NCBI GenBank assembly: GCA_964013565.1 | Contig: CAXGWU010000036.1 | Location: 1 to 29,227, forward strand | From: an uncultured Oligoflexia bacterium | GTDB lineage: Bacteria > Bdellovibrionota > UBA1018 > UBA6935 | Direction: 5' to 3' | Length of the DNA stretch: 29,227 bases | Part shown: positions 5,500-25,385 of the stretch, one piece after another | How positions within the stretch are numbered: the stretch's first letter is position 1 | Layout of the letters: every line of letters starts with the position of its first letter | The notes under the pieces: generated by a model | What the model saw: only the letters and a program-made list of their open reading frames with translations | What the model was told of the DNA's origin: nothing | The model's database searches: none | Program-made: the position numbers and the translations under genes

Positions 5500-6114
5500 A
5501 TGGAAAGTTTATTGAAGTTTCTTCTCGGTTTTAATGCTCCTATCCCTTATTTCTTCGTTTTTGGAATATTGCTTGCCTGTGGCTTGGGAATACCGATTCC
5601 TGAAGACATTACTTTATTTGCTGCAGGTGTGCTCTCCTATTATGGAAAGGCAAATGTATATGTCATGATTGCCATCGGCATGTTGGGGGTGATGCTGGGT
5701 GATTCAATGATTTTTTATCTTGGATCTAAGTATGGTGTTCGACTGACTGAAAACAAAAAGTTTCATAAAATCATTCCACCAGCTAAGTTTGAAAAAATGT
5801 CCGAAAGCCTTCGGGTGAGGGGAAACCGATTGATATTTTTTGCTCGATTTATGCCTGGATTTCGGGCCGCCGCTTTTTTCTCAGCAGGTACATTAGGTCT
5901 TCCTTATCGAGTGTTTTTTTTATTTGATGGAGTTGCGGCTTTGATTTCTGTTCCATCAATCATCTATAGCGTTTATTATTTTGGTGATCAGGTTGATCGT
6001 GTCATTCGTATTATCCAAGGGATTGAACATGGGATTGCAGGAGCAATCTTTTTGGGTATTTTATTTTTTGTAATGAAATGGATGATAAAGAAAAGGAAAC
6101 GACAGAGAGCTTAA
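5500..6114 (+). CDS. DedA/VTT (SNARE-associated) family membrane protein
   Basis: Shows the DedA pattern GLGIPIPEDITLFAAG ... FFARFMPGFRAAAFFSAG. I prefer the ATG at 5500 (MESLLKF) over the TTG at 5470 given in the ORF track. Confidence 0.8.
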   Translation: MESLLKFLLGFNAPIPYFFVFGILLACGLGIPIPEDITLFAAGVLSYYGKANVYVMIAIGMLGVMLGDSMIFYLGSKYGVRLTENKKFHKIIPPAKFEKMSESLRVRGNRLIFFARFMPGFRAAAFFSAGTLGLPYRVFFLFDGVAALISVPSIIYSVYYFGDQVDRVIRIIQGIEHGIAGAIFLGILFFVMKWMIKKRKRQRA

Positions 6115-6116
6115 GG

Positions 6117-7082
6117 ATGAGATTAATTTTAGTGTGCTTTTTTTTTATTTGTTTTTTTAATATGGGGTTTTCTTCGGGGCCAGCAAAACTAAAAGAAAAA
6201 ATAAAGTCGCTCGTGACTCCTAAAATGAGCTCTAAAGAGAAAAAACAATGGTGCCACTCTTTAGAACATTCGATTCATTTTTATCAATGGAAATGGGATT
6301 CTTGCAAAAAATTAGACTGGAAAGTTTTAGGTAAATCGGTTCAAAACCGTCCTCTCACTTATTTAACTTATGGTCCAGAGAATGCAAAAAATACAACTCT
6401 TATTTTTACGATGGTTCATTCTGATGAAATTACCCCGCTCTATATTGGTTTACGCCTGACCGATTGGTTGGAAGAACATGCTTCTTCGTTTACTAATCAA
6501 AGAGTGATTTTAGCACCTCTTGTTAATCCGGATGGTTTTTTTAGAAAAAGAAAAACTCGAGTGAATGCCAATAAAGTAGATGTAAATAGAAACTTTCCAA
6601 CAGCGGATTGGAATGATGATGCAATTGAATTATGGAAAAAAAAATTTCGTTCAAATCCACGTCGTTACCCTGGAAAACAAGCAAATTCTGAACCAGAAAC
6701 TCGGTTTCAGATTGCTTTGATTAAAAAATTTAAACCTCAAAAAATTCTTTCAGTTCACGCACCTCTAAATTTTATGGATTACGATGGACCGAATATTCTT
6801 TCACTTGCTAAATTTCCAAAAGAATACGTAAAAAAATGCCTTCAGCTTCGATCAAAGGTGAATGCGCGATCGGGAGGATTTTATCCAGGATCTTTAGGAA
6901 ATTACGCAGGACAAGAGCGATCCATTCCTACATTGACTCTTGAGCTACCTTCTGCAGATTACTCTAAAGGGTTAAAGTATTGGAATCAGTTTAAAAACGG
7001 AATTAAAACGGTGATTGAGTTTGAGGTTCCACCCACTTTACAAGGACTTCCTTCTAAAGAAAGTAAAAAACAATTTTTTTAG
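6117..7082 (+). CDS. secreted M14-family zinc carboxypeptidase/murein-peptide amidase-like protein
   Basis: M14 motifs appear in order: HSDE (HxxE zinc ligands), NPDG, VDVNRNFP, SEPET and SVHAP (third zinc His). A signal peptide (MRLILVCFFFICFF) follows the ATG at 6117, which has an AAGG Shine-Dalgarno. The track start at 6078 overlaps dedA. Confidence 0.75.
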   Translation: MRLILVCFFFICFFNMGFSSGPAKLKEKIKSLVTPKMSSKEKKQWCHSLEHSIHFYQWKWDSCKKLDWKVLGKSVQNRPLTYLTYGPENAKNTTLIFTMVHSDEITPLYIGLRLTDWLEEHASSFTNQRVILAPLVNPDGFFRKRKTRVNANKVDVNRNFPTADWNDDAIELWKKKFRSNPRRYPGKQANSEPETRFQIALIKKFKPQKILSVHAPLNFMDYDGPNILSLAKFPKEYVKKCLQLRSKVNARSGGFYPGSLGNYAGQERSIPTLTLELPSADYSKGLKYWNQFKNGIKTVIEFEVPPTLQGLPSKESKKQFF

Positions 7083-7090
7083 GTTAAAAA

Positions 7091-8557
7091 ATGAATAAAT
7101 CATTTATCTCTTTTTTATTTTTCTTTGGACTCGTTTTATTTGCCCACTCATTTTCATTAGGGCTTTCAGATGATGAAGCCTATTATTGGATTCTGTCACG
7201 ACAGTGGTCTTTAGGCAGTGAGTTTCACCCCCCCATGGTCGCCTGGTGGATTAAGATTGTGACTATGGTTTTTGGGGACCTTAGTGTGCGATTGCCGGCT
7301 ATTTTAACTTCTCTGTTTCTGGTCTGGGTTACTCGATTTTATGTACTCAATGAAGGGAAACCAGATCTTTTAAAGTTTTCTCATCAATGGATTTGGATAA
7401 GTTTACCTGGGCTTTTTGTGGGATCTTGGATGATGGTTCCTGATATTCCACTCTTTTTCTTTTGGGGAATTCTTCTTTTAGTTGGAAGAAAGTGGATCGA
7501 GCGTCGCTCTCTTTTACTTTTTTTTGTTATTCTTTTTTCATTTGCCGGGATGAATCTTTCCAAATTTTCTGGAGTTTTAATTCTACCTAGCCTTATTGCA
7601 TCATGGTTTTTTCTTTCTGACGAAACTCAGAGAGTTCGTACTACTTTTTATGGAGGGTTTGCCCTTTTCTTAGGCCTTATTTTTTCTTGGTCTATTATTA
7701 TTTATTGGAATTCAGCACATGAATGGATTGCTCTCAAATATCAGTTTATGGGGAGGCATGCGGGAGAGATCTCTTGGCTGAGGTATTTGAGGTTTTGGGG
7801 GATTCAGATCATTTTAGCTGGTCCTGTTCTTTTTCTTTTTAGCTTAAAGTTACCTGTATTTTTTTTAAAAAAGAAAAACAAAGGAGCTCTTTATTTATTG
7901 TTTTTAGCTCTCCCGCCTTTAATTGTTTATTTTCTACAGCCTCTTCGAGCAGAGTTTAAGCTTCATTGGACATTAGCTGCTTGGATTCCGTTATGGATTC
8001 TTTGGATTTTGGAAAATATCTCTAATCGGAGATGGTTTCGTATTCAAAATAGTTTTTCTGCTTTAGTAATTGTTTTTGTTTTTTTATCGGCTCATCTTCC
8101 GATTCTTCCGTTTTTTCATAAAGCTTTTTCAGATCGTCCTTGGAATCCTTTGTGGGACGTAACGGGTGATTTAGAAGGGTGGAGAGAGCTTCCTTCTCAT
8201 TTAAAGTCTTTAGGATATCAATTAGATGAGTGGGGCTTTGCAGGGAATCGTTATCAGACCGCATCACAAGCTGGATTTGCTTTGAGAGAGTATGGAGTTT
8301 CAGTTTGGGTGCCTCGGAAAGAAGGTGCACGATTTGATTGGTCAATTCCTCGTATTGTTAAAGATCCTGTATTTGATTTAACTCTTTTGAAAAAGACTCT
8401 CTTTTTTGGAGATCACCGATATAATGCTCCACCTTCTTTTTTGAAGGCCAGTTGTGAATCTATTCCATCTTTAGAGGTGAATCGGGGTTCCTATCGATCT
8501 AAAACGATTCTTATCTGGAAGTGTTTACCGAAGCTTTCTTTAGATGATCATTCCTAA
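7091..8557 (+). CDS. ArnT/PMT-like GT-C glycosyltransferase (family 39/83 type)
   Basis: 488 aa with at least 10 TM helices. The first loop motif LSDDEAYYWILSRQW...HPPMVAWWIK is characteristic of polyprenyl-phosphate-sugar-dependent GT-C enzymes. A soluble C-terminal domain is present. Confidence 0.7.
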   Translation: MNKSFISFLFFFGLVLFAHSFSLGLSDDEAYYWILSRQWSLGSEFHPPMVAWWIKIVTMVFGDLSVRLPAILTSLFLVWVTRFYVLNEGKPDLLKFSHQWIWISLPGLFVGSWMMVPDIPLFFFWGILLLVGRKWIERRSLLLFFVILFSFAGMNLSKFSGVLILPSLIASWFFLSDETQRVRTTFYGGFALFLGLIFSWSIIIYWNSAHEWIALKYQFMGRHAGEISWLRYLRFWGIQIILAGPVLFLFSLKLPVFFLKKKNKGALYLLFLALPPLIVYFLQPLRAEFKLHWTLAAWIPLWILWILENISNRRWFRIQNSFSALVIVFVFLSAHLPILPFFHKAFSDRPWNPLWDVTGDLEGWRELPSHLKSLGYQLDEWGFAGNRYQTASQAGFALREYGVSVWVPRKEGARFDWSIPRIVKDPVFDLTLLKKTLFFGDHRYNAPPSFLKASCESIPSLEVNRGSYRSKTILIWKCLPKLSLDDHS

Positions 8558-9350
8558 TCCAAGCGGTTTGATTTCGCCCAGAAAATGTGTTTTTAATTTG
8601 AAACCACCGATCTTTAAATGAAATCACTTCAAATGTAGTGCTGTCTTTGATTCGACTAATGACAGGATAGTGAAGTCCAGGTCCAGAACGCATTTTTACA
8701 TTTGGAACTGTTGTTTTTACAAAAAAACGGTTTTCAATTTTAGGGGATATCCTTTGTTTTTTTATTTTATTTTCAGTGTTTCTTTTAGAGCTTGCTTGTG
8801 TAGATTGAATTGTTTGAATGGGAGTATTTTTTTTGACTTCAGGAGTGAGTTCTACTCGACTCATTGAAATTTGTGGTTTTTCTGATTCAACTCTAAAAAT
8901 AAGATAAGCTCCGCTGATGATGGTCAAAGCAGCAGAAATACTGAGTGATACAGTGATGATATTTTTTTGGACCCAAGTTTGAATTTGATCTGTTTTTGAT
9001 GATTGCATGATATTAATTTCTGGTAATGGTTCAGGAAAAGAAGATTCTTTAGAAACAGACTTTACTTCTTTTTGGATTTTGGGTTTATTCATCCTTTCTC
9101 TAAAAGGAGGAGGGGTAGCTTTTGAAATTGTCCTTTTAGGTTGAGCAGGCTTTATTGTCGGTTGTGTACGAATTTCATGAAATTCCATGGGTTGTTTTAA
9201 ATTTGAATTTACTTTAATTGCCGTATGATTGGATTGTTTTATACATGAAAATCCGCCACATTGAATACAGCGTGTGAAAGTCCACCCATTAGGACTTTGT
9301 TTTTTTTCTACATGCATTTCACTTGAACAGTGAGGACAAGTCACTTTCAT
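8511..9350 (-). CDS. zinc-ribbon / single-TM / SH3b-domain protein
   Basis: N-terminal CPHC...CIQC (MJ0042-type zinc ribbon), a Pro/Lys-rich linker, the TM segment IITVSLSISAALTIISGAYLIF, and a C-terminal bacterial SH3-like sequence (VNVKMRSGPGLHYPVISRIKDSTTFEVISFKDRWFQIK). AAGGAG Shine-Dalgarno before the ATG. Confidence 0.6.
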   Translation of the reverse strand: MKVTCPHCSSEMHVEKKQSPNGWTFTRCIQCGGFSCIKQSNHTAIKVNSNLKQPMEFHEIRTQPTIKPAQPKRTISKATPPPFRERMNKPKIQKEVKSVSKESSFPEPLPEINIMQSSKTDQIQTWVQKNIITVSLSISAALTIISGAYLIFRVESEKPQISMSRVELTPEVKKNTPIQTIQSTQASSKRNTENKIKKQRISPKIENRFFVKTTVPNVKMRSGPGLHYPVISRIKDSTTFEVISFKDRWFQIKNTFSGRNQTAWIRNDHLKKASVNTSR

Positions 9351-9424
9351 TTTTTACTCCTTGCCAAAGATAGAAATATTCCTATAAATAGGATCTCTTA
9401 TTGTAAAAAGATCAACAATGGGCA

Positions 9425-10261
9425 TTAATTTCCGGAAGGAGTGGAGCTGATCTCTCTTTTTGGTTTAGAGGTCGAGTCAATGTTTTGAAGGGAAGGAGAG
9501 TCCCATGGAATATTTTCTACATGAGGTTCTAATACTTTTAAAACAACTCTACGATTTGTATCTAAAGCATTGATATCCCAACTTCCATCAGGATTACGTT
9601 CTTTTTTTTGTGGTCGAGTGGATCCATATCCAATTGCAAGAAGTTGAGTGGGATCAAATCCGGTGTCAATAAAACGTCTAAGTACTTGTGATGCGCGTGC
9701 TCCAGAAAGCTCCCAGTTCGATGGATAGATCCCGCTGAGAATAGGTCGACCATCGGTATGGCCTTCAACTACAATTTTATATTTTTTTTGTTCAGCGTCT
9801 TGACGTCCGAGTAGAGCGATCGTGAGCTTTTTTAAAATGTCCATTCCCTTTGGTTTGATGTTTGCACTCAAAGTATCAAAAAAGAACGTAGAATGAAAAG
9901 TGATCGTCGTTCCATTTGGATCTGAAAAAACAACAGCATCTTTTTCAATGCCTGCTTCTTGAATCACTTGTGATACAAATTTAGCAGTTTGTTCTCCCGC
10001 GGATTCATAATCTCCACCAAAGTGTTTAGCTAATCCTTCCTTTACTTTTTCATATCTAGGTGTATCAAAATTAGCTGTACTCATCATCATAATAAAAAAT
10101 GCACAAAGGAGTGTCATCAGGTCAGCGTATGAAGTTAACCAGATGGCTTCGTCCCCGTCCTCTCCTTTTCTCAAAGACTTCACTTCAGGTTTTTGGTGAG
10201 CGAGTTCTTCTTGAGTTTGTCGTGCTTTTTTTAAAAACTTTGAAATTGACAAGTTAAGCAA
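9425..10261 (-). CDS. motB: flagellar-type stator protein MotB (OmpA-like peptidoglycan-binding C-terminus)
   Basis: The plug/TM region AIWLTSYADLMTLLCAFFIMMM retains the channel Asp. The C-terminal OmpA-like motifs VEGHTDGRP...NWELSGARASQVLRRF are present. A TTG start overlaps the motA stop by 8 nt. Confidence 0.85.
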   Translation of the reverse strand: MLNLSISKFLKKARQTQEELAHQKPEVKSLRKGEDGDEAIWLTSYADLMTLLCAFFIMMMSTANFDTPRYEKVKEGLAKHFGGDYESAGEQTAKFVSQVIQEAGIEKDAVVFSDPNGTTITFHSTFFFDTLSANIKPKGMDILKKLTIALLGRQDAEQKKYKIVVEGHTDGRPILSGIYPSNWELSGARASQVLRRFIDTGFDPTQLLAIGYGSTRPQKKERNPDGSWDINALDTNRRVVLKVLEPHVENIPWDSPSLQNIDSTSKPKREISSTPSGN

Positions 10262-11036
10262 CCCTTCTCTCTATTCTTTCTTCTGGCATAAGAAAAGAAT
10301 TTAAACTTTCTTTCATTGCAAGTGGATTCACTTGTTTTTTTAATAAAATTGCACCTTCGACCATCATTCGTCGAAGAGCAATTTCTTCTTCAGTTCTTTC
10401 AGTCAAATTTTCTGCTATAGGAAGAAAAACTAAGTTAGCAATAGAGATTCCATAAAGTGTTCCAACTAGTCCAATAGACATTGCTGGCCCGATGAGTTTC
10501 TCACTCCCAGGTTTCCCTAGTTGTTGAAGAAGAGCGATCATTCCTAATGTGGTTGCAAGTAGTCCAAATGCAGGAGGAAATTTTCCAATGCTTTTGAACA
10601 TGTTTGCTTCACTCATATACTTTTTTTCAACTGTTTTTAATCTTTCTTCTAGAACTGAACGTATTTCTTGTTCTGTAAGAACTCCTGCTGCTACAAGAGA
10701 AACTCCTTCTTTTAAAAAAGGGTGACGAATACTGGGAATTGAATCTTTCAATGCGGATAGACCCAGTGAAGCTTTTTTATTAAGGTCTAGTAAGGTTTGA
10801 ACTGATTCTTGATAATTTACTTTATTTTTTCCTAAAACTCTAAAAAAGAAAATTTTTAAGAGAGAAATAATTTTTTTTATTGGAAAACTAATACTTGCTG
10901 CTGCTAGCGTTCCTCCACAAACAATGACTATCCCGTGAAAATTTAAGAAAAACATCAAGTCCATCCCGCTCTCTGCGAGAGATGCGACCATGACTCCAAC
11001 ACCTAGTAATACACCAAAAAGAGATGAAAAATTCAT
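10254..11036 (-). CDS. motA: flagellar-type stator protein MotA/PomA
   Basis: 4-TM MotA layout with a cytoplasmic loop of about 90 aa between TM2 and TM3. The conserved prolines are present (PPAFGLLATTLG and NLVFLPIA). I place the start at the ATG at 11036 (MNFSSLFGVLLG), 1 nt after the upstream stop. The track's 11120 start would overlap the cNMP gene. Confidence 0.85.
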   Translation of the reverse strand: MNFSSLFGVLLGVGVMVASLAESGMDLMFFLNFHGIVIVCGGTLAAASISFPIKKIISLLKIFFFRVLGKNKVNYQESVQTLLDLNKKASLGLSALKDSIPSIRHPFLKEGVSLVAAGVLTEQEIRSVLEERLKTVEKKYMSEANMFKSIGKFPPAFGLLATTLGMIALLQQLGKPGSEKLIGPAMSIGLVGTLYGISIANLVFLPIAENLTERTEEEIALRRMMVEGAILLKKQVNPLAMKESLNSFLMPEERIERRVA

Positions 11037-11037
11037 T

Positions 11038-11556
11038 TTATGCAGCCTCCTCGGAAGAGCCTTTTGTAGAAAGAGCTGTTTTCCAAAGTTGATATTGTGT
11101 AATGACGTAACTGTCATCAAGTTCCTTAAGTCGATTCACCACATGGTGAGCACAACTCTCGTAAAATTTAAGTTTTCTTTCGGTCGACTTGTTTAAAAAA
11201 GCCTGAAATGAATATTTTGAAATATAGAATAAAAGACATTCAGTGGTTGCTCGTACTGTTGCAGATCGAGGTCCGTCATCAATAAGTGAGAATTCCCCAA
11301 AAAAACCACCTCGATCAATTTGACCAACGTCGTAGGTATTTCCTGAGACTCGATTTGATTTGAATACGCCTACAGAACCATCCATGACAAGATACATTCC
11401 CCAACTCATTTCACCTTCGATTACAATGTTAGATAGAGCTTCGTACTGAATGAGTTTTCCTATTCCTAAAATTTCTTGGATTTCAGTTTCTGAAAAAATT
11501 TGCAAAAGACTGACTTCCTTAAGAGATTCAACTGACGGTTGTTTTTTGTTTACCAT
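11038..11556 (-). CDS. stand-alone cyclic-nucleotide-binding (CAP effector) domain protein
   Basis: 172 aa with the phosphate-binding-cassette-like segment GGFFGEFSLIDDGPRSATVRA inside a beta-roll context. There is no HTH or other output domain. Its start is embedded in the upstream stop (ATGGTAA). Confidence 0.8.
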   Translation of the reverse strand: MVNKKQPSVESLKEVSLLQIFSETEIQEILGIGKLIQYEALSNIVIEGEMSWGMYLVMDGSVGVFKSNRVSGNTYDVGQIDRGGFFGEFSLIDDGPRSATVRATTECLLFYISKYSFQAFLNKSTERKLKFYESCAHHVVNRLKELDDSYVITQYQLWKTALSTKGSSEEAA

Positions 11557-13871
11557 CCTGCCACCTTTTTAAATTCTTCATTGTTATTTGGATTTTGGCC
11601 TTCTGGTGTTAGATCTGCAGCAAACATTTTTTCATTAGTTTCAATGAGATTGATACTGCCATCGTTAGCCATTACTTTTACTCTGTTAAGTATTTTTCTT
11701 GAAATATTTTGATACTCATCTCTTGATACGTTATCAAGACCTTCAATTTCTTCTTGAAGTTCAATGACAAGCTCTTGAGGTGATTTAGCAAAAATCGCGT
11801 TTCGTACATGTTCGGTTGAACCTTTTAAGAAACGAATTAACTCTTCATGTTTTAATCCAAGAACGACTTCAAGAAGGTGGTTATCTCTAAGGTATGCAAG
11901 GGTGTCTACAGAAACTAACTTACTTTTTACTGCGTGAGCACTATCCGGATTTTTTGTATTTAGCATGCTCATTACACTTTTCTGAGTCTGGATATTTGCT
12001 CTTTCAAGAAGACTTACAAGTACGTCGGATCCTGGAAGTGCTTCTGTATTTAACTTAGGATTGTCACTTCTTTTCCGTTTTAACGCTACGGCTACGTTAT
12101 AGATATAGTCTTTTGGAAGGTGATCAATTCTTGAAAGCTCAGTAAGAAGTCGCATTTTGGTATCTTCATCCATTTGAGCATAGATTGCTGTTCTTTTCAT
12201 TGGGTCAGTCTGAGTAAGAACAATAGCTTTTACTGTTATTGATTCATTTCGAATCAACTCAAGAACTTGAAGTTTGTCCATTTCTGCAAGAAAGTCAAAT
12301 AGACTGGTGGATCGATGACCTAAGATAAACATTTTTGCTGCAATGGTTCTGTTGTGGAGACTTTTTAAAAGTTCTAGCTTATCGTTATCATCCATTTCTA
12401 CAGGGTTTTTAGCGTAATACTCCATCAAGTCTGATAGATCAGTTTGTAAGCTCGGGTCACGAAGCATGTCGACTACAATTGCTTCTCCAAAAAGTTCAAT
12501 GTAGCAAGCTGTAACTTCCACTCCTTCTTCCGTTAATATTCGGGAAAAAACTTGTTTCGCTACTCTCGGTTGTTCACCAAAAATCTGAGTTAATTCTGAT
12601 TGTAGTCTTTCAATTTCGTAACGAATTGCAACGGAATTGATATTCTCTAAACGCGAAGGAGGTTTAGCAAATGACTCATTTGTTTCTGGGGATTGATTTT
12701 TTCCATCTTGAATAAATCTGTGAATATTTTCATTAGGTCCTCTTTTAGGTCGATAGGTAGCCAGAGCAATGAAAATAAGAAGAGAGAGTACTGAAACTGC
12801 AAAAATAAGTGAGTAGATTTCAAATTCTTGAATTTGAGATTGAACAATATCTCCATCTTCAACACGCTCTATTTTTTCATAGTGTACAAACTTCTCACTT
12901 TTATTTTCTTTATTTTCATTTGTTTGATTGAGTTGAGAATTTGAATTAAACTTTTTTGAGCTGGTAAATAAATCCTGTTTGTTTTTAAAAAATTCTGAAT
13001 TGGACTGAGATTTAGAATCTTTACTTGTAGAAGAAGCAAGTCCTCGTCGTCCAGATACATTTACTCCAGAAGCAATTCCGTTAGTAAGTCCTTGAGGAAA
13101 AGAAATGGATTTGTGATCTAGGTATACATTTTTTAGAAATCCTGTTTTTAATTTAGCCATTTCTAAAAGACCATACTGTTCCTCTGGAGAAAGACTAGAG
13201 TCTGTAAGAATAGTTCCTTCAATCCTATTGATTTTTACTGCAACATCACCATCTTGTACAAATTCACCAATAGAACCATATTGGGCTTCTTCGGGATTGA
13301 CGGGATCTACTTTAACGTCATAATCACCGAGAAGACAGTGCTGAGGACAGAAACGTCCAATTAAGTCAGATAGGGCACTGGTAAATTCTTTACTTATTCT
13401 TTCTTTAATTTCGGCTACTTTTCTGGATGATGCAATGGGTTGAGGAAAGTGTGCTATTTTTGTTTCAATTTCTACTGGATATGGCAAGTCCTCAAAGTGT
13501 TGATCTATTAATTCAAGGAGTTTCTTTTTTGAGTTCGGTCCAACTAAATCACCAATGAGTAAATTTACTTTGACTTCACTTACTTCAATTTCTGGATTTC
13601 CACCATTTTGAAGATTAATGTCAAATCCTGGTTCGAGTTCATCAGGAACAGCAACAGTGACCTGAGCTTGTGAAGAAAGGAGTTTACATTGATCGTCACA
13701 GTATTTTTTTAAAATAGGTTCTATTACTTTTTTTACTTCAGAAATAGACTTTCTTTTGAGTTGGTCTGCATTTAAAGATGCACTTTGAGCAACTTTTGAT
13801 GTTCCCAAAATTATGATGAATAAAAATGACCATTGAGTTATTTTAATGAAGAAATTCCTTTTTCTTTTCAT
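11550..13871 (-). CDS. bitopic membrane protein: periplasmic tandem YscJ/FliF-like ring-building modules + TM + cytoplasmic FliG-like domain
   Basis: 773 aa. Residues 1-30 are a signal peptide or N-terminal anchor. Residues 44-129 and 154-246 are two internally similar modules, each with a CxxxC pair. Residues 270-330 form an S/N/K-rich linker, and residues 352-373 are a TM helix. Residues 432-745 are colinear by eye with the FliG N/M/C domains (for example LFDFLAEMDKLQVLELIRNESITVKAIVLTQTDPMKRTAIYAQMDEDTKMRLLTELSRI). The existence of the CDS is certain; the domain calls are inference. Confidence 0.6.
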   Translation of the reverse strand: MKRKRNFFIKITQWSFLFIIILGTSKVAQSASLNADQLKRKSISEVKKVIEPILKKYCDDQCKLLSSQAQVTVAVPDELEPGFDINLQNGGNPEIEVSEVKVNLLIGDLVGPNSKKKLLELIDQHFEDLPYPVEIETKIAHFPQPIASSRKVAEIKERISKEFTSALSDLIGRFCPQHCLLGDYDVKVDPVNPEEAQYGSIGEFVQDGDVAVKINRIEGTILTDSSLSPEEQYGLLEMAKLKTGFLKNVYLDHKSISFPQGLTNGIASGVNVSGRRGLASSTSKDSKSQSNSEFFKNKQDLFTSSKKFNSNSQLNQTNENKENKSEKFVHYEKIERVEDGDIVQSQIQEFEIYSLIFAVSVLSLLIFIALATYRPKRGPNENIHRFIQDGKNQSPETNESFAKPPSRLENINSVAIRYEIERLQSELTQIFGEQPRVAKQVFSRILTEEGVEVTACYIELFGEAIVVDMLRDPSLQTDLSDLMEYYAKNPVEMDDNDKLELLKSLHNRTIAAKMFILGHRSTSLFDFLAEMDKLQVLELIRNESITVKAIVLTQTDPMKRTAIYAQMDEDTKMRLLTELSRIDHLPKDYIYNVAVALKRKRSDNPKLNTEALPGSDVLVSLLERANIQTQKSVMSMLNTKNPDSAHAVKSKLVSVDTLAYLRDNHLLEVVLGLKHEELIRFLKGSTEHVRNAIFAKSPQELVIELQEEIEGLDNVSRDEYQNISRKILNRVKVMANDGSINLIETNEKMFAADLTPEGQNPNNNEEFKKVAGW

Positions 13872-13873
13872 TT

Positions 13874-14593
13874 TTAATTACTCCCTCTTAAGGTTAATTT
13901 TTTCTTTTTTGATTGTATAAATTTTTTGAGAGACTCATTATTAGGGTCAAATTCAACAGACTGTTCCCAAGATCGCATTGCTAATTCGGAGTAGCCAAGA
14001 CGTTCTAATAGCGTTCCTCTCATTTCATAAAGTTTGGGGTCAGTTGGGTAGCTTTTAATCATTTCATCTGTTTCTAGTAATCCAACTTCATATCGTTTGT
14101 TTCTATAGAGTTGCTTGATGTAGTCGATTTGAGCTAGATAGCTCGACTGACGTTTAGGTTGAGCTTCAGGAGGTGTAACAAGGCCTAGTTCATTTTCAAT
14201 ATTACTTCTCTTCCAGTCATTCTCTGGAATGCCTTCTGGAAGTTTTTCGATGATTTCGTGATCTGCAGTAGAGGGTTTTATTTTTTTATAGTCAGGGTTA
14301 ATTTGATTTTTTTGATTGGATGCAAGAGTCCTTTGTCCTACTAGAGTAGCATCCATTGGAACTACAAATTCAGTCATTTGATTTGTTTCTCTGGGAAGTT
14401 CAACTTCAACTGACTTCTGTCCTTCTTTTGATCTCAATATGATATTTGTCTCTTTTTCACCTTCGAAGAATGAATTACCAAAAGGATTTTCGATCATTGG
14501 AATGGTTTCAGTCTTTGTAGACGCACAAGAATTTCCAATAAGAATAATGAGAAGAGAAGTGATGCCTTTATTTAGATATTTCATCGATTTCAT
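13874..14593 (-). CDS. TPR-repeat putative lipoprotein
   Basis: 239 aa. The signal peptide ends IGNSC (Cys23), which is lipobox-like but non-canonical. C-terminal TPR repeats are visible (YRNKRYEVGLLETDEMIKSYPTDPKLYEMRGTLLERLGYSELAMRSWEQSVEFDPNN). Confidence 0.65.
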   Translation of the reverse strand: MKSMKYLNKGITSLLIILIGNSCASTKTETIPMIENPFGNSFFEGEKETNIILRSKEGQKSVEVELPRETNQMTEFVVPMDATLVGQRTLASNQKNQINPDYKKIKPSTADHEIIEKLPEGIPENDWKRSNIENELGLVTPPEAQPKRQSSYLAQIDYIKQLYRNKRYEVGLLETDEMIKSYPTDPKLYEMRGTLLERLGYSELAMRSWEQSVEFDPNNESLKKFIQSKKKKLTLRGSN

Positions 14594-14595
14594 CC

Positions 14596-15798
14596 TTAAA
14601 ATAGTGCGCTTACGCCCACGCCTCCTTCAATTCCAGTGAGGGTTCCTACAGCAGTTCCATCTAAAAATGCAGTTGCTGGTGGTCGGTACCCAATATTTGC
14701 ATTGACTCCCCAGTGTTTTCCAAGTCTCCATTCATATCCACCGCGAATCAATCCACCTAAAAACCCTGATGTGTAAGTTCCACCAATTCCAACAAATATA
14801 CTTCCTCGAATTTTGTTATAGTTTTCTAAATTTCCGATGAGATTCCAGGCGTGCATAAAAAGAAGAGAAAGATTAAATCCGTTCCACACATCAACAGTGG
14901 ATGTATCTGTAGAAGTGCTAAAGAAAGAGCTTGCACTTCTAAAGTAGTCTAATTCAAATCCAACTTCTTTTTTTCGATTATCGTAGCGTTCCATCATGCG
15001 GAAACCAAGACCAATAGTTCCGTTGTATTCGTTTAAATTTCTTTCAAACATATAATAGAGGATCACTCGGTACTGTAAAGTGGGTTCATAATCCGCTTGA
15101 TGTCTTGCTTGATCAACTTGTGAGTAATCAACTCCACGTCTAAAAGCAGCTGCACGAGAAGTTTCTGAATTATATGTTCTAGACCATATAATTGTTTGGT
15201 TTTCTGCATCAGTGATATAGAGAGAGAGTAAGAGTCCTGTGGGCAAATAGGCAAACGCAATATCTAAAAAATGTTTCACAGAGTGTTTTTTTGCAAGTCG
15301 AGCGAGTTGCTCAGGGTGACTTTCTGGAGACGAAATAACAACGTTATTTCCACTCAGACGAGCTGTTCTTGATCGACATGGAATACATTGAATCATTCTG
15401 GTTTGTGAGTTTTTTAGAATTCGCTCAGTTGTGAGTAACTCTAAATGACTCTTAAAGGATTCTGGAACATTTTCACTGGTGACGACATTTCGAACGGATA
15501 GATCAGTTAAGCCCCTTACATCGCCACTTTTGACATCATACTCAAAATCAGAAAGTACATCTTCAAGGACCTGGTAAAAACTTCTTTTCTTTTCGTCATC
15601 TTGTTCTTCGTTAGAAGAAATGAGCTTAGACTTCGTAGTTGGATCAGGAGTGATTTCTTTGTTCTCTGGTGATTCTTCTGCAAAAGTAGAGGTACTTGTT
15701 GTGAACAAGACGAGGAGAATTATCTTTCCCAAAAACTGAAAGGGGAGAGTCACTCGCTTTTTAATGAGTTTATCTGTTTTGTGGGTTTTTATATTCAT
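14596..15798 (-). CDS. putative outer-membrane protein (N-terminal soluble domain + C-terminal beta-barrel-like region)
   Basis: The signal peptide LGKIILLVLFTTSTSTFA-EE follows the ATG at 15798. The C-terminal 170 aa or so are Gly/aromatic-rich with alternating hydrophobicity and end in ...GVGVSALF, the terminal Phe signature of OM proteins. The start is uncertain: the track start at 15843 would give a 35-aa n-region. Confidence 0.5.
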   Translation of the reverse strand: MNIKTHKTDKLIKKRVTLPFQFLGKIILLVLFTTSTSTFAEESPENKEITPDPTTKSKLISSNEEQDDEKKRSFYQVLEDVLSDFEYDVKSGDVRGLTDLSVRNVVTSENVPESFKSHLELLTTERILKNSQTRMIQCIPCRSRTARLSGNNVVISSPESHPEQLARLAKKHSVKHFLDIAFAYLPTGLLLSLYITDAENQTIIWSRTYNSETSRAAAFRRGVDYSQVDQARHQADYEPTLQYRVILYYMFERNLNEYNGTIGLGFRMMERYDNRKKEVGFELDYFRSASSFFSTSTDTSTVDVWNGFNLSLLFMHAWNLIGNLENYNKIRGSIFVGIGGTYTSGFLGGLIRGGYEWRLGKHWGVNANIGYRPPATAFLDGTAVGTLTGIEGGVGVSALF

Positions 15799-15830
15799 AG
15801 TGGTATAAACGATTCCTTCCTCTAGATGAC

Positions 15831-15857
15831 TTTTCGGACACATCCCCTGTCTTTTTA
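15831..15857 (-). promoter_or_regulatory. sigma-28 (FliA)-type promoter candidate for the stator/FliG-like operon
   Basis: The minus strand reads TAAA-N15-TCCGAAAA against the consensus TAAA-N15-GCCGATAA. It has the same architecture as the fliC promoter at 19210-19236. It lies about 33 nt upstream of the ATG at 15798. Confidence 0.4.
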
Positions 15858-15922
15858 ATTATTTTTCGTTTTTTTTCATTTTTTGTTTCATAAGGTGAAA
15901 AATTTGCCGATAGGTAGGTGAA

Positions 15923-16753
15923 ATGTTCCACAAAAGAAGGAAAATAAATTTAAATAAGATAAAGAAGAGTGTTTTTTTGACGTTTTTTTCGGTTCTTCAT
16001 GTTCAGTGTTCGTCGACACCGGTGACTCCTATTGAGCCATTACCGGAAGTTCCAGAGTATCTTCATGCTCCTCATCCTGTTGGTTTTGATTTTGCAGATT
16101 TAGAGCTTATTTTTCATAAGGCTTCTTCTCCAACACCTGAAAAATTGGCAGGTTGTAATGAAAAGTTTGAAAGTCTAAAAGTAGTCACTCAAAAAAATGA
16201 AGACATATATAGAGTCACCAGAGAGTTCATTAAAAATGAACCAGTTGAGTTTCATTGGTGTTTTTATCATAAGATCTTCACTCTTCATGAGACATTAAAG
16301 AATACCCCTACTTGGCGTGGACGACAGAAAGAAGTTATTGAAGCTTTTGAGTTTTTAGTTCCAGTCGCTCGAGGGTTTCGTAAAGAATTTCATGATCCAC
16401 GCTATCTTCGATGGGCGTCTCGATATTATATTCAGTTAAGTAAAACTGTTTTTTATAAAAACTTAGTTCTTTCTCCACAAGCAGTATCAGATCAGTATGG
16501 TGAAATTTCTACTCCTTATGCTTTATGGAAAAAGTCAGAACCTCAAAAAGAGGCTTCTCAGGCAGAAATTAAAAATGTAGAAATACAAAGCAACACAAAT
16601 TTAAAAGAACCAAAAGAGGAACTTCGTGTTCCTGCTGGATTAGAAGATCAAATTGATGCTGAGTTAGAAACAGAGTTAAGTAGTGATCCTTTTTTAAATG
16701 AAGCCCTTCCAGAGTTAGATTCCAACAAATCAGCTGAGGTTATTGAAAAATAA
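15923..16753 (+). CDS. hypothetical secreted protein/putative lipoprotein with acidic C-terminal tail
   Basis: 276-aa ORF with an N-terminal hydrophobic segment ending at Cys29 (SVLHVQCSS). I recognised no family motif. It is divergent from the stator operon. Confidence 0.55.
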   Translation: MFHKRRKINLNKIKKSVFLTFFSVLHVQCSSTPVTPIEPLPEVPEYLHAPHPVGFDFADLELIFHKASSPTPEKLAGCNEKFESLKVVTQKNEDIYRVTREFIKNEPVEFHWCFYHKIFTLHETLKNTPTWRGRQKEVIEAFEFLVPVARGFRKEFHDPRYLRWASRYYIQLSKTVFYKNLVLSPQAVSDQYGEISTPYALWKKSEPQKEASQAEIKNVEIQSNTNLKEPKEELRVPAGLEDQIDAELETELSSDPFLNEALPELDSNKSAEVIEK

Positions 16754-18283: not shown

Positions 18284-19117
18284 ATGGGTATGCGTGTAAA
18301 TACAAATGTTCAGTCGATTGCGGCTCAACGGACGTTGGAAAAAAATAATATTTCTCAGCAAAAATCAATTGAGAAACTAGCAGCAGGTACTCGAATTGTT
18401 CGAGCGGCCGACGATGCAGCTGGTTTAGCAATTTCTGAGAGAATGAGAGCTAACATTGGTTCGATTCGTCAGAACGCAAGAAACGCTCAAGACGGAATCT
18501 CAATGATTCAGGTTGCTGAAGGATCTTTTAATGAAATTAATAACGTTTTAGTGCGTTTTAGAGAGCTTGCTGTTCAAAGTGCCTCTGACACTATTGGTGA
18601 TAAAGAGCGATCTTACATTGATAAAGAGGTTCAGCAATTGAAACAAGAGGTTGATCGAATCGCAAATGGTACTGAGTTTAATGGAAAAAATCTATTAAAT
18701 GGAAGTGGTGAGGTTCTACAGATTCAAGTAGGTCCGATGAATGATCCAGAGCTCGATCGATTTTATTTGGATACGTCTAAGACGAATTCAACGACTGATG
18801 CTTTAGGTCTTGCAGATTTCAATACGCTTTCAAGAGAAGCTTCCCAAGAGTCTCTTGCAGCAATTGATAACGCAATTGATATGGTTGTAGAAAATCGTTC
18901 TGATCTAGGTGCTCAACAAAATAGACTTGAGTCTACCATCAGAAACTTAAAAATCTATGATGAGAACTTATCAGCTGCGAGAAGTCGAATCTATGATGTC
19001 GATATTGCAAGTGAGACTGCTGAATTGACTCGTTCAAATATCTTAACTTCTGCAGGTGTGTCGGTTCTCAGTCAAGCAAATCAAAATAGTATGAGAGCGT
19101 TACAGCTTCTAGGATAA
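18284..19117 (+). CDS. fliC: flagellin (short, 277 aa)
   Basis: MGMRVNTNVQSIAAQRTL..., AADDAAGLAISERM, GISMIQVAEG, and the C-terminal SVLSQANQNSMRALQLLG. AGGAGG Shine-Dalgarno 7 nt upstream. Confidence 0.95.
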   Translation: MGMRVNTNVQSIAAQRTLEKNNISQQKSIEKLAAGTRIVRAADDAAGLAISERMRANIGSIRQNARNAQDGISMIQVAEGSFNEINNVLVRFRELAVQSASDTIGDKERSYIDKEVQQLKQEVDRIANGTEFNGKNLLNGSGEVLQIQVGPMNDPELDRFYLDTSKTNSTTDALGLADFNTLSREASQESLAAIDNAIDMVVENRSDLGAQQNRLESTIRNLKIYDENLSAARSRIYDVDIASETAELTRSNILTSAGVSVLSQANQNSMRALQLLG

Positions 19118-19150
19118 GCTTCAGAGAACAGATAACTTTCTTATATCATT

Positions 19151-19207
19151 CGTCTTTTGGGATTATGGGTAAAACCAGGTCTCAAAAGACGATAAATTTG
19201 TTTTTTT
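19151..19207 (+). terminator. intrinsic terminator after flagellin 1
   Basis: A 12-bp stem (cgtcttttggga at 19151-19162 pairing with tctcaaaagacg at 19180-19191, one G-U pair) is followed by ataaatttgttttttt. Confidence 0.55.
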
Positions 19208-19209
19208 AC

Positions 19210-19236
19210 TAAAGTATTTACGCAGTGCTCCGATAT
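19210..19236 (+). promoter_or_regulatory. sigma-28 (FliA)-type promoter for flagellin 2
   Basis: TAAA (19210-19213), a 15-nt spacer, then TCCGATAT (19229-19236), against the consensus TAAA-N15-GCCGATAA. It sits immediately after the upstream terminator T-run. Confidence 0.6.
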
Positions 19237-19514
19237 GCTTATTGTCAGCAAGGAAAGGTTCCTTGGTGACGGTCAAAGTCTCCGTGAATGCACGGGGAGG
19301 TGATGTCAGAAGCAGAGAAAAGCTTTCTTTCATCGATACGGTATAGCCTAAGTTTCGTCTTTTTCATTCGTAAAAAGCAGCTTAGTTTTTTCAATTCATA
19401 TTTTCTCAAGACCTTGATCTAAACAATAACTTTTGTTTCTAAGAGAACTTTGTCTCGGCCTTTTGGTTTCCAAAGCTTCTTTTTAGAAACGATAACCATT
19501 GAGGTACGTTTGTT

Positions 19515-20348
19515 ATGGGCTTGAGAGTAAATACAAATATTGCATCGTTAGCAGCACAAAGAGTTGTGCGAAATCGAAGTTTAGAGCAAGAAAAATCTTA
19601 TCAGAGATTGGCAACTGGGCGAAGAATTGTCAATGCAGGTGACGACGCAGCCGGTTTATCTATTAGTGAAAATCTGCGTGCACAGATTCGTTCAATGCAT
19701 CAGGCAGAAAGAAATGCGAATGACGGAATTTCTTTTGTTCAGGTTGCAGAAGGTGGCCTTAATGAAATAGCAAATATGCTCGTTCGTTTAAGAGAGCTTT
19801 CTATTCAGGCAGCTTCAGATACTGTCGGTGACCGTGAACGAGGTTTTATTCAAACGGAAGTAGAAAGCATTGTTGGTGAGATCGATCGCATCGCAAATGT
19901 AACCTCATTTAATGGAACAAATTTGTTAAATGGAGAAAGCGACAAAGGTGATCTTGATATTCAAGTGGGAATTCGAAATAAGGAACCCGACCGAGTCAAT
20001 TTATCAATAGACGAGAATGATGTGACTACGTCTGCTCTAGGAATTGATGGGATTGAGGCTTCAAGTATTGGCTCTGCAAGAGACTCTTTGGATTCAATTG
20101 ATAATGCAATTGATCGAGTGAGTGGATCAAGAGCTCGATTAGGTGCTGCACAAAATAAACTCAGATCAAGAGTGAATAATCTTTCTATTAATAGACAGAA
20201 TTTAGAAGCAGCAAGATCAAGAGTGATTGATACTGATATTGCAGATGAAAGTGCGAAATTGGTCACTCATAATATTCTAAAAAGTACTGGAATTTCAGTT
20301 TTGGCTCAGGCAAACGTCGCGCCAATGAAAGCTTTGGAATTAATCTAA
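19515..20348 (+). CDS. fliC: flagellin (short, 277 aa), paralog of 18284-19117
   Basis: MGLRVNTNIASLAAQRV..., GDDAAGLSISENL, GISFVQVAEG, and the C-terminal SVLAQANVAPMKALELI. Confidence 0.95.
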   Translation: MGLRVNTNIASLAAQRVVRNRSLEQEKSYQRLATGRRIVNAGDDAAGLSISENLRAQIRSMHQAERNANDGISFVQVAEGGLNEIANMLVRLRELSIQAASDTVGDRERGFIQTEVESIVGEIDRIANVTSFNGTNLLNGESDKGDLDIQVGIRNKEPDRVNLSIDENDVTTSALGIDGIEASSIGSARDSLDSIDNAIDRVSGSRARLGAAQNKLRSRVNNLSINRQNLEAARSRVIDTDIADESAKLVTHNILKSTGISVLAQANVAPMKALELI

Positions 20349-20361
20349 GTTAGGTACACTT

Positions 20362-20396
20362 AAGGGAAGAAAGGACATTGATGCCTTTCTTCCCTT
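20362..20396 (+). terminator. 13-bp hairpin just after flagellin 2 (terminator-like, weak U tract)
   Basis: aagggaagaaagg (20362-20374), a 9-nt loop, then cctttcttccctt (20384-20396). It is followed by ataaaagtttt rather than a clean T-run. Confidence 0.45.
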
Positions 20397-20464
20397 ATAA
20401 AAGTTTTAAAAATTGCGCCCAAATCCTTTTTGTAATAGTGCAAAAAGGGTTTAAGAAGCCCATT

Positions 20465-20501
20465 CCCCCTAGGATTGCCGAGAGCCTAGGGGGTTTTTTT
20501 T
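20465..20501 (+). terminator. canonical intrinsic terminator
   Basis: GC-rich 9-bp stem ccccctagg (20465-20473) pairing with cctaggggg (20485-20493), followed directly by T8 (20494-20501). Confidence 0.7.
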
Positions 20502-20563
20502 GTCAAAAATATGACTTCATTTTTCTTTTAAATATTCCGTAAAGCTATTAAGAGGGTTTTTAC

Positions 20564-20914
20564 GTGAAAATCGGCAATTTACTCATCAATTCAATTCATA
20601 AAATACAGTCTAAAAAAGACGCTCAAGACTCTTTTAAAGAACACCTTGAACAAGAACAAAAGAAACAAGACTCTGAACCAGAAAAAAAAGAATTATCAGA
20701 AGAAGAATTAACCGATGCGATTGAAAATTTTGAGAGCGCTAAGTTTGCAAAAGAAAGAGGAATTCACGCAAGTGTGACTCCAGGCTTAAGAGTAGTGTTA
20801 TCTGATTCTCAAGGAAAGCAAATACGTCAAATGAGTGGCGAAGAGTTTCTTGATTTACGAACCGCTGTTCAAGAACAAGTTTCTCAAGGAAAGTTAATTG
20901 ATAAAAAGATTTGA
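20564..20914 (+). CDS. flaG: flagellar protein FlaG
   Basis: 116 aa. The C-terminal FlaG-family pattern LRVVLSDSQGKQIRQMSGEEFLDL...GKLIDKKI is present. GTG start with an AGAGGG Shine-Dalgarno. It occupies the flaG-fliD-fliS synteny position. Confidence 0.75.
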   Translation: MKIGNLLINSIHKIQSKKDAQDSFKEHLEQEQKKQDSEPEKKELSEEELTDAIENFESAKFAKERGIHASVTPGLRVVLSDSQGKQIRQMSGEEFLDLRTAVQEQVSQGKLIDKKI

Positions 20915-20955
20915 TGCCTCTTGGATCTTTTTGATGTCTCAGTTATGTTCATTTT

Positions 20956-21708
20956 ATGGATGTCTATGTTATTTCTGATCTTCATATAGAATCTTCGAGA
21001 GACTCTATCTATCAAGATTTATTAAATTTAATCGAAAATGAACCAATGAGTGGGGACTTCTTTGTTTTTGCAGGAGATATTTTTGACCATTGGATCGGAA
21101 ACAAGCAATTTTATCAAAAAAATTTCGAAAAATTTATTTCTATCGTTCAAAAAAAATCAAAAGAGGGAGTGATCTTCTATTATATAGAAGGAAATCATGA
21201 TTTTCTTTTAAAAGGAATTTTTGGAGAAAGTTCTTCAATTAATATAGTGGATTCTTTTGTAGCTCTTGAGCATGATTCTCGAAAAATAATCATTACTCAT
21301 GGTGATCTGGCAAATCCTCACGATAAGTCTTATCTTTTGTTAAGAAAATTTTGGAGAAGTATTTGGATTAAATGTTTTGTAGCAATTTCATCAGGTCAAT
21401 TTATTGACTTTTTAGGAAGAACGCTTAGTCGCGGATCCTCTCAAACACGTATAGAAGAACGTCTTGCCCCTGATGAAAAGTCCATTTCTAGATTAAGAGA
21501 AATATATCATCAGTACGCAGAAAAGTTTTTTTCAAAAGGATTTGATTGTGTGGTGGCAGGCCATTGTCATGATCGTGACGAATATCGAAAAAAAATAGGG
21601 GAAAAAGAATTTCAATACATCAATGTGGGATTTCCTCGAGTTCATGGAGAGTACCTTGTTAAGTCGCAGGGGAGTATGTATTTTAAAAGAGTTCATTTCA
21701 CCAGGTAA
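20956..21708 (+). CDS. LpxH-like calcineurin-type metallophosphoesterase (UDP-2,3-diacylglucosamine hydrolase family)
   Basis: Ordered motifs VISDLHI, GDIFDHWIG, EGNHDFLL, THGD and GHCHD are colinear with LpxH as I recall it. Confidence 0.65.
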   Translation: MDVYVISDLHIESSRDSIYQDLLNLIENEPMSGDFFVFAGDIFDHWIGNKQFYQKNFEKFISIVQKKSKEGVIFYYIEGNHDFLLKGIFGESSSINIVDSFVALEHDSRKIIITHGDLANPHDKSYLLLRKFWRSIWIKCFVAISSGQFIDFLGRTLSRGSSQTRIEERLAPDEKSISRLREIYHQYAEKFFSKGFDCVVAGHCHDRDEYRKKIGEKEFQYINVGFPRVHGEYLVKSQGSMYFKRVHFTR

Positions 21709-21809
21709 ATTCTTCCGATTGGAAATCATTTCATCTCTTATCATAATAAAAAGACAAGTTCTCTTAGGATGAGAGGGCTTATTTTAGAAATAAAGGATCA
21801 GGAGGATCC

Positions 21810-23198: not shown

Positions 23199-23207
23199 GA
23201 GAAAAAA

Positions 23208-23609: not shown

Positions 23610-23612
23610 AGT

Positions 23613-25165: not shown

Positions 25166-25206
25166 TTAAAAGCTAAGGATGGGCTTTTTTCTGTCAAGGA
25201 GGACGG

Positions 25207-25383: not shown

Positions 25384-25385
25384 GC

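Follow-up and report, generated by a model that had tools for sequence, protein, structure and literature searches.

We examined a 29,227-nucleotide stretch of DNA from an uncultured Oligoflexia bacterium (contig CAXGWU010000036.1 of assembly GCA_964013565.1; this whole stretch is referred to below as the window) and found that a gene on its minus strand, at positions 11550..13871, encodes a 773-residue protein in which ring-building motif (RBM)-like modules and a transmembrane (TM) helix are fused to a FliG-like region. We named this protein FliGL, for "FliG-like". As predicted from its sequence, FliGL is a single-pass inner-membrane protein in which two periplasmic modules are joined to a full copy of FliG, and its gene shares an operon with genes for the stator proteins MotA and MotB (MotAB). 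We favor, with a probability of about one half, the reading that FliGL is the central subunit of an undescribed, envelope-spanning and ion-driven machine, which would be built from flagellar rotor and stator parts and would operate without a type III export core, rod or switch.

The FliGL gene and its FliG-like half

The open reading frame (ORF) that an earlier note had placed at these coordinates stands. It is complete, stop codon included, and its minus-strand translation is the protein quoted in that note; the plus-strand frame at the same positions is not open and holds many stops. More than 120 full-length homologues (731-839 residues) were counted, all of them from metagenome-assembled genomes labelled Bdellovibrionota, Bacteriovoracia or Oligoflexia and carrying no annotation beyond "FliG C-terminal domain-containing protein"; an identical FliGL protein is on record from a marine "Bdellovibrionaceae" genome of this kind. 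A pseudogene or a chance ORF was ruled out by the 46-57% identity of these homologues over the full length and by invariant motifs in every domain.

The 370 cytoplasmic residues of FliGL are colinear with full-length FliG, as the earlier note had proposed. In Pfam, the FliG middle domain (FliG_M, PF14841) was matched at residues 535-604 (E 9e-8; 32.7 bits against a gathering cut-off of 25) and the C-terminal domain (FliG_C, PF01706) at residues 636-742 (E 2e-14; 54.2 bits against 23.3), and both were matched by all 44 aligned FliGL homologues. Of the three FliG domains that the note had named, the N-terminal one is the exception: FliG_N (PF14842), the domain by which FliG binds the C-terminus of FliF, gave no above-threshold match in the right region of FliGL or of the 44 family members, though the Foldseek alignment spans full-length FliG. 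When the family profile was compared with the PDB, the FliG proteins of T. maritima, Aquifex and H. pylori were matched at E 1e-12 to 1e-11, positions 63-326 of the 3hjl chain being aligned to FliGL 484-744. An AlphaFold model of residues 395-773 comprised 22 helices at a mean predicted local distance difference test score (pLDDT) of 89.5, and its 16 best Foldseek matches in the PDB were all FliG, including Salmonella FliG within the C-ring. Against full-length Aquifex FliG, 319 of 321 columns were aligned, and the C domain fitted 1qc7 with a root-mean-square deviation of 1.8 Å. By these comparisons the half is divided into a FliG_N-like helical region (residues ~407-520; 12312..12653, minus strand, as are all FliGL features below), a middle or ARM_M domain (residues ~521-606; 12054..12311) and a C-terminal domain with an acidic torque helix (residues ~614-745; 11637..12032). 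We also considered whether the helical region is an MgtE-N domain only, and rejected this, as FliG_M and FliG_C outscore MgtE_N by far and the best structural matches are all FliG. On the strength of these profile and fold matches, the cytoplasmic half is predicted to be a genuine, full-length FliG homologue.

Within this half, the surface that faces MotA appears to be kept, and the FliM-binding and hinge motifs appear to be lost. The EHPQR motif of the middle domain, whose absence the earlier note had recognized, is replaced by NES(I/L)TVK (NESITVK in FliGL; family consensus RNESLTVK), and at the MFXF hinge E. coli MFLFENL aligns to KLVSVDTL (family consensus KLVSxDTL). The loss of both motifs argues against a FliM switch. 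On the torque helix, by alignment and column counts, four of the five charged E. coli FliG positions that face MotA are kept: K264 is K683, D288/D289 are E707/E708 ([ED]707 in the family) and R297 roughly corresponds, with an offset of one, to R717. The exception is R281, where FliGL has an acid (E700; [DE]700 in the family). These charges, which the earlier note had described as only partly retained, are thus better conserved than it supposed. E704 is conserved as well, which leaves an acidic ridge on the torque helix (E700, E704, E707, E708) together with K683 and R717.

FliGL nevertheless differs from FliG in several respects. FliG is soluble, whereas FliGL is covalently anchored to the membrane and has a signal peptide, a TM helix and 340 periplasmic residues. 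In its sequence, FliGL falls below the cut-off of the fliG equivalog TIGR00207 (61.6 bits against 226.7, with residues 521-741 aligned to model positions 108-327), has no Pfam FliG_N match, lacks EHPQR and MFXF, carries an acid at the R281 position and ends in an extra tail. This tail, KKVAGW (residues 768-773; 11553..11570), follows a variable linker, is conserved across the family and is possibly a docking peptide for some partner; distant subfamilies end otherwise, in RRFRISxxxV or ..EVS. Finally, the FliGL gene lies outside any fliE-fliF-fliG-fliH operon, and its partners are an outer-membrane (OM) barrel, a tetratricopeptide repeat (TPR) lipoprotein, a cyclic-nucleotide (cNMP)-binding protein and MotAB.

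Membrane topology and the duplicated periplasmic module

At the N-terminus, hydropathy revealed a hydrophobic stretch of 12 residues (W14-S25) between a KRKR sequence and the site AQS|A. A short hydrophobic region of this kind with an AxA-like site is the pattern in all FliGL homologue N-termini. Because of this pattern, residues 1-31 (13779..13871) most likely form a cleaved Sec signal peptide and not a first TM helix. The hydrophobic stretch that the earlier note had pointed out is therefore real, and its use as an uncleaved anchor, which that note had entertained, is not what the homologues indicate. The TM helix placed by the note at residues 352-373 (12753..12818) is the sole segment of FliGL with the length and hydrophobicity of a TM helix. 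It is followed by the basic RPKRG, which is why the C-terminal half is read as cytoplasmic. As a consequence, the FliF-like topology with two TM helices is not supported, and FliGL reads as a single-pass protein like SctJ/PrgK. The periplasmic face of the membrane is reached through a juxtamembrane motif, E..EKIERVE.GD..Q.E (residues 326-349; 12825..12896), which is conserved in homologues and in which E332, E335, R336, V337, E338, G340 and D341 are invariant.

This topology also sets FliGL apart from the E-ring proteins FlgY, FlbB and MotE, which carry an MgtE_N/ARM-like domain in a flagellum-related ring protein outside FliG and some of which are membrane-anchored (PMC13023049). Their ARM-like domain is single and forms a periplasmic head on a coiled coil, whereas FliGL has a complete cytoplasmic FliG with N, M and C domains and a torque helix. 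Membership of FliGL in the E-ring (FlgY/FlbB) group was rejected on this ground, since in FliGL the ARM/FliG region comes after the TM helix, on the side that the positive-inside rule assigns to the cytoplasm.

The periplasmic half consists of module 1 (residues 32-140; 13452..13778), module 2 (residues 146-257; 13101..13436) and a spacer. The internal similarity of the two modules, which the earlier note had seen in the sequence, was confirmed by hhalign (E 4.5e-10, probability 96.7%), which also brought the CxxxC pairs into register, and the modules are best explained as an internal duplication and paralogous to each other. C58 and C62 of module 1 and C175 and C179 of module 2, each pair at a junction of helix and strand, are invariant in the 44 homologues, as is, among FliGL homologues, the PGF motif of module 1 (residues 81-83). 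In the AlphaFold model of residues 31-343 (pLDDT >90 for 205 residues), each module opens with a 30-residue helix; two long strands come next, then a second helix and a final strand. This order, helix-beta-beta-helix-beta, is the RBM order, was anticipated for both modules by the earlier note and is modelled mostly at pLDDT >90. When the periplasmic half was searched against the PDB with Foldseek, the top matches were chains of the Salmonella FliF MS-ring, namely 7bk0_B (E 1.5e-6), 6scn_A and 8t8p_AA; FliF matches ranged from E 1.5e-6 to 5e-5, RBM3/S-ring entries reached a TM-score of up to 0.53, and YscD, PrgK and PrgH ranked lower. Between the modules and the juxtamembrane motif lies the S/N/K-rich, low-complexity spacer that the note had described (residues ~262-325; 12897..13088), modelled at pLDDT <50 and variable in length and sequence among homologues.

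An operon with a dedicated MotAB stator

The FliGL gene is part of a tight minus-strand operon that encodes, in this order, the OM barrel, the TPR lipoprotein, FliGL, the cNMP-binding protein, MotA and MotB, with intergenic distances of -8 to +2 nucleotides. The MotA and MotB genes that the earlier note had reported as adjacent are indeed there, and the cNMP-binding gene sits between the pair and FliGL. For MotA (10254..11036), the listed ORF of 10254-11120 most likely starts too early; from M29, whose ATG at 11036 lies one base past the cNMP stop, the protein is a 260-residue stator A subunit of the MotA/PomA type. MotB (9425..10261) is a stator B subunit with a conserved Asp in its TM helix (YAD), a plug and an OmpA-like peptidoglycan-binding domain.

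The MotP, MotA and PomA models matched MotA at E 1e-46 to 1e-37, and the TolQ model at E 0.055 only. All the domain features of flagellar-type stators are present in the pair (the MotA_ExbB domain, the TM3/TM4 prolines, the charged loop, the channel Asp, the plug and the OmpA domain), although MotA stays below every stator equivalog cut-off, the best score being 157 bits (MotP) against 394. At the position of PomA R88/K89, MotA has [KR][KR] (K87, K88), and the prolines of PAFG and LPIA in TM3/TM4 are kept as well. The PomA E96 position, which in E. coli is E98, the partner of FliG R281, is N/K/S/Q in cassette MotA, in a loop whose alignment is uncertain. Together with the loss of R281 in FliGL, this change could be taken to suggest co-adaptation, and we offer it as a suggestion only.

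The 172-residue cNMP-binding protein (11038..11556; PF00027, E 7e-16) has an intact phosphate-binding cassette (FGE...PRSAT), and its gene overlaps the FliGL stop by 7 nucleotides. This translational coupling between the FliGL gene and motA would suit a quite different role, in which FliGL is a membrane-anchored FliG decoy that captures MotAB under cyclic-nucleotide control and thereby tunes flagellar torque, as an analogue of a YcgR-type brake or clutch. The retention of the MotA-facing torque helix alongside the loss of the FliM and FliF interfaces would fit such a stator sink too. We nonetheless regard it as very improbable, given that the cNMP gene is missing from 11 of 64 cassettes and that a decoy needs neither two modules with invariant cysteines nor an OM barrel and a TPR lipoprotein, all of which are conserved across deeply divergent lineages.

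Upstream of the FliGL gene lie those of a 239-residue lipoprotein (13874..14593), with a lipobox (GC), a conserved NPF motif and C-terminal TPRs, and of a probable OM beta-barrel protein (14596..15843), with a signal peptide, an N-terminal domain carrying a CxxC and a C-terminal ...LF. The listed start of the barrel ORF is probably too far upstream, M16 at 15798 being the better candidate.

Conservation of the cassette within and beyond Bdellovibrionota

We next turn to the genomic neighborhoods of the family, for which counts refer to 80 of the 91 loci found, 64 of them with enough flanking sequence to be informative. MotA and MotB are encoded downstream of the FliGL gene in 63/64 informative loci, the OM barrel and the TPR lipoprotein adjoin upstream in 64/64, and the cNMP gene is present in 53/64. 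A dedicated MotAB pair thus appears to be co-inherited with the FliGL gene. The flanks of the 80 loci contain no canonical fliF or fliG and no second motA, save for one weak ExbB-like ORF.

To reach more distant relatives, a profile of the periplasmic part and TM helix only was searched exhaustively over 1.84 billion proteins, of which a mere 144 representatives matched. They were sorted into the FliGL family itself (tier 1), distant two-module proteins of 717-986 residues (tier 2) and single-module proteins of ~570-640 residues (tier 3); one single-module member is labelled Persicimonas sp. (Bradymonadales). When ten of the matched proteins were run against Pfam, every one of them hit FliG_C, FliG_M or the related MgtE_N model, weakly or strongly; where the protein tested was full-length, a C-terminal region of the FliG type accompanies the periplasmic module. 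Across the three tiers, the CxxxC and PGF(D/E) motifs are kept. In all ten loci of distant two-module and single-module relatives with enough flank, OMP-like, TPR-like, MotA, MotB and FliG-like genes stand in one operon, in a different order, and no flagellin, FliF or FliG is encoded within 10 kb. The distant FliG-like proteins match at only E 1e-9 to 1e-3, yet this five-gene core is retained, so that the barrel, TPR lipoprotein, MotA, MotB and FliG-like genes appear to be co-inherited across divergent lineages. In one lineage, on a 7.5-Mb contig of high G+C content, the OM barrel and TPR homologues are fused into one protein of 689 residues (L085:6055-8295), just upstream of MotA-MotB-FliG-like; such a fusion is a Rosetta-stone hint and supports a physical complex of the two.

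The single-module loci, at 52-67% G+C, share a conserved 11-gene operon (L089:1009-13205; also L085, L090, L095, L096 and L097). It adds four upstream genes, two of them for OM barrels of small size, of which one hits the myxobacterial OMP_myx_plus model (E 8e-14), and downstream genes for proteins of ~317 and ~180 residues, the last with a faint C-terminal match to AgmX/PglI (GltJ/GltG) at E 0.012, far below cut-off. Homologues of the 172-residue cNMP protein (E ~1e-22) are found 2-7 kb downstream of single-module cassettes and outside the operon (L094:11384-11863, L095:14029-14508, L097:13781-14374).

A candidate rotor-stator machine and its alternatives

How might these parts work together? 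In the reading that we favor, cleavage of the signal peptide would leave FliGL as a single-pass protein of the inner membrane. The basic K87/K88 loop of MotA, a PomA/MotP-type protein encoded in the same operon, would engage the acidic torque helix of the cytoplasmic FliG part, MotB would tie the stator to peptidoglycan, and ion flow would rotate the MotA pentamer and so push the FliG-like domains. Most likely, FliGL would oligomerize, and the resulting ring would be the driven rotor. The periplasmic modules, on their long spacer, would dock to the TPR lipoprotein and the OM barrel and in this way bring the energy of the motor to the OM or the cell surface, with the small cNMP-binding protein as the likely regulator. 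From this arrangement we infer that the parts touch one another, that FliGL forms a ring, that the ring turns, what it delivers and that it acts apart from the flagellum, while the sequences themselves show the domain identities, the logic of the topology, the selective retention of the MotA-facing surface and the co-inheritance of the five genes. A ring is favored because ARM_M/ARM_C and the RBM-like modules are both ring-forming elements in flagella and injectisomes, and because engineered FliF-FliG fusions of Salmonella and Vibrio (PDB 8z4d/8z4g; PMC11481574) also assemble rings. The latter have the same order of parts as FliGL (a periplasmic ring domain, a TM helix and FliG), which makes a fusion of this type compatible with ring formation, and 8z4d is among the PDB profile matches of FliGL. 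They are, however, laboratory constructs of true FliF and FliG, whereas FliGL is natural and anciently conserved, with a periplasmic sequence that is not FliF and OM partners of its own. Going further, and at somewhat less than even odds, we tentatively propose an autonomous, flagellum-independent nanomachine, in which a FliG-type ring is driven by MotAB and coupled to the surface via the RBM-like modules, the TPR lipoprotein and the OM barrel; it would be a sixth kind of 5:2 motor and either a flagellar offshoot or a pre-flagellar relative.

Several observations weigh against the machine as we favor it, and the first group concerns the periplasmic half. The earlier note had likened its modules to the ring-building modules of FliF. 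RBM topology and best fold matches to FliF bear this out; a link in sequence to FliF/YscJ was not recovered. No YscJ_FliF (PF01514) match was obtained by Pfam in the 44 family members at E up to 5, hhalign of the periplasmic half against E. coli FliF gave a probability of <1%, and a profile search of this half against the PDB at E up to 10 matched no solved chain. OsmC, KH-like and ribosomal proteins also score in Foldseek, the RBM fold being small and common. The modelled structure would therefore place the half in a new sequence family with an RBM fold. In layout it matches SctJ, which has the same order of signal peptide, two RBM-like modules and C-terminal TM helix. Unlike FliF, SctJ, PrgK and EscJ, FliGL is without PF01514 similarity, a lipobox or export-gate genes nearby, and has 30-residue first helices, an invariant CxxxC and a disordered spacer before the TM helix; and unlike FliF in particular, it has, by hydropathy and the AlphaFold model, one TM helix, two modules and no insertion of the size of the RBM3 beta-collar.

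The spacer is a further difficulty. At 60-100 disordered residues between modules and TM helix, Pro-rich in the single-module relatives, it could pass on tension, and torque only poorly, and it fits a rigid, MS-ring-like rotor poorly. As such a spacer hinders rigid transmission of torque, pulling of the Ton/Glt kind stays in play: single copies or small oligomers of FliGL would be pushed by the MotA pentamer, with no rotor ring, and the pull would run through the spacer to distal modules bound to the TPR lipoprotein and the OM barrel. This resembles ExbBD-TonB, TolQRA-Pal and AglRQS-Glt: in those systems, too, genes for an inner-membrane, ion-driven motor stand together with genes for a membrane protein that bears a spacer, for a TPR protein, for lipoproteins and for OM barrels. 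The disorder and variable length of the spacer, its TonB-like proline content in single-module relatives, the several OM barrels of their operons (OMP_myx_plus among them), the faint AgmX/PglI match and the invariant juxtamembrane motif, which suggests a stator contact at the membrane, all speak for such a transducer. Yet FliGL keeps a complete FliG with N, M and C domains, including the ARM_M, helix_MC and ARM_C that polymerize rings in flagella, its periplasmic fold is the one that FliF, SctJ and SctD use to build rings, and the AgmX/PglI match is far under its cut-off. The cassette motor differs too, being of the MotA/MotB type with plug and OmpA domain, and FliGL is predicted to engage it by a cytoplasmic FliG domain, not by a TM helix in or beside the motor. 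On balance we find a non-ring transducer unlikely.

The remaining observations against the favored machine concern the flagellum. Flagellin genes lie within 10 kb of the cassette in 30/80 loci and 2-5 kb from it in the window, where flagellins, fliD and fliS are a few kilobases away; on a single-module contig, too, a flagellin gene sits two genes from the cassette. The cultured Bacteriovoracia Halobacteriovorax marinus SJ (PMC3526173) and Bacteriovorax sp. HI3 (PMC12827227) are reported to have a single motAB pair. Moreover, L092, L004 and the distant P0149 keep the FliG-like gene without an adjacent MotAB, and stators encoded elsewhere may serve these relatives. In L004, the gene of an SH3 protein (described below) directly follows the FliG-like gene. 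L092 (JGI Ga0486084_000181, 8518-13620), which can be viewed as a natural "deletion" variant, has flanks syntenic gene for gene with window positions 8511-16753; it lacks the OM barrel, MotA and MotB and retains the divergent lipoprotein, TPR, FliG-like (720 residues), cNMP and SH3 genes.

Each of these findings would fit a cassette that serves the flagellum, its MotAB being the flagellar stator or part of a shared pool and FliGL, the TPR lipoprotein and the OM barrel belonging to the periphery of the motor. Their role there can be likened to those of PflA/PflB, MotX/MotY/FlgT and the spirochaete collar; in one variant, they would make up an outer ring, anchored in the membrane, by which the stator units around the C-ring are held, positioned or counter-engaged. 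MotA, being of the PomA/MotP and not the ExbB/TolQ type, would suit this role, as might the sole motAB pair reported for H. marinus and Bacteriovorax sp. HI3. So might the two K02410 fliG genes listed for both Halobacteriovorax genomes (PMC7460792 Table S3). Against it, the flanking housekeeping genes are equally syntenic, so that proximity to fliC may just reflect conserved gene order; the ten distant cassettes have no flagellar gene within 10 kb; and the MotA of the single-module relatives is far from the flagellar equivalogs (77 bits against cut-offs >300). Bdellovibrio bacteriovorus, whose sheathed flagellum is comparable, is not among the 80 loci listed of the 91. Furthermore, six Bradymonadales isolates (TMQ1-4, B210 and SEH01) are listed with one motA and with no fliF, fliG, flhA, flg or fliM (PMC7460792 Table S3). 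We hold an accessory role in the flagellum to be doubtful. The motA-only pattern of Bradymonadales and the double K02410 of Halobacteriovorax could be footprints of the FliGL cassette, which occurs in Bdellovibrionota and probably in Bradymonadales, both of them predatory lineages.

Other features of the window

The G+C content of the window is 36.5%. Downstream of motB, after a gap of 74 nucleotides, a minus-strand gene (8511..9350) encodes a 279-residue protein that combines a zinc ribbon, a TM segment and an SH3 domain in the periplasm. This gene is not a constant part of the cassette, being found in ~45 loci and in L092. The cassette is flanked on this side by plus-strand genes for an M14 carboxypeptidase and a PMT_2-type glycosyltransferase (6078-8557); a pair of M14 and GT22/PMT-like genes also flanks the distant member without MotAB (P0149, L087), and the link may exceed local synteny.

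On the other side, a conserved 276-residue lipoprotein is encoded divergently from the operon (15923..16753, plus strand) and is retained in L092. Just upstream of its gene, GCCGATAG at 15908-15915 (plus strand) resembles the -10 element GCCGATAA of a sigma-28 promoter. It was not used as evidence: GCCGATAG has no properly spaced -35 element, CCGATA occurs at the same place in only 7/40 related loci, and a scan for consensus promoters and terminators yielded nothing above shuffled expectation.

A late flagellar cluster follows on the plus strand (18284-27179), with genes for two 277-residue flagellins, fliD, fliS and unannotated ORFs of 116 and 142 residues. The flagellins, fliD and fliS sit 2.4-9.7 kb from the divergent lipoprotein gene, and their presence implies that the organism is flagellated. 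Beyond the cluster come genes for a 375-residue TPR protein and a 597-residue glycosyltransferase family 9 protein, possibly involved in the modification of flagellin or lipopolysaccharide.

Implications

To our knowledge, FliG is known only as a soluble rotor and switch protein of the flagellum. Our full-text literature searches returned engineered FliF-FliG fusions only, with no natural membrane-anchored FliG and no description of this operon. In a recent phylogeny of stators (PMC12505986), those that face FliG are taken as flagellar (the FIT clade). We read FliGL and its MotAB as a FliG-MotAB rotor-stator pair in a new architecture. If the favored reading is true, the torque interface between FliG and MotA would be used in a second architecture, and the cassette would offer structural and single-molecule work a minimal rotor-stator pair without export gate, rod or switch. 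For evolutionary studies, it would be a concrete candidate for a stator-rotor module that exists apart from the type III secretion core. Were FliGL, on the contrary, to prove an accessory of the flagellum, the little-studied Bacteriovoracia motors would have in it a stator-associated scaffold of a new class. That the cassette is confined to predatory lineages is a hint that it takes part in surface motility or in contact with prey.

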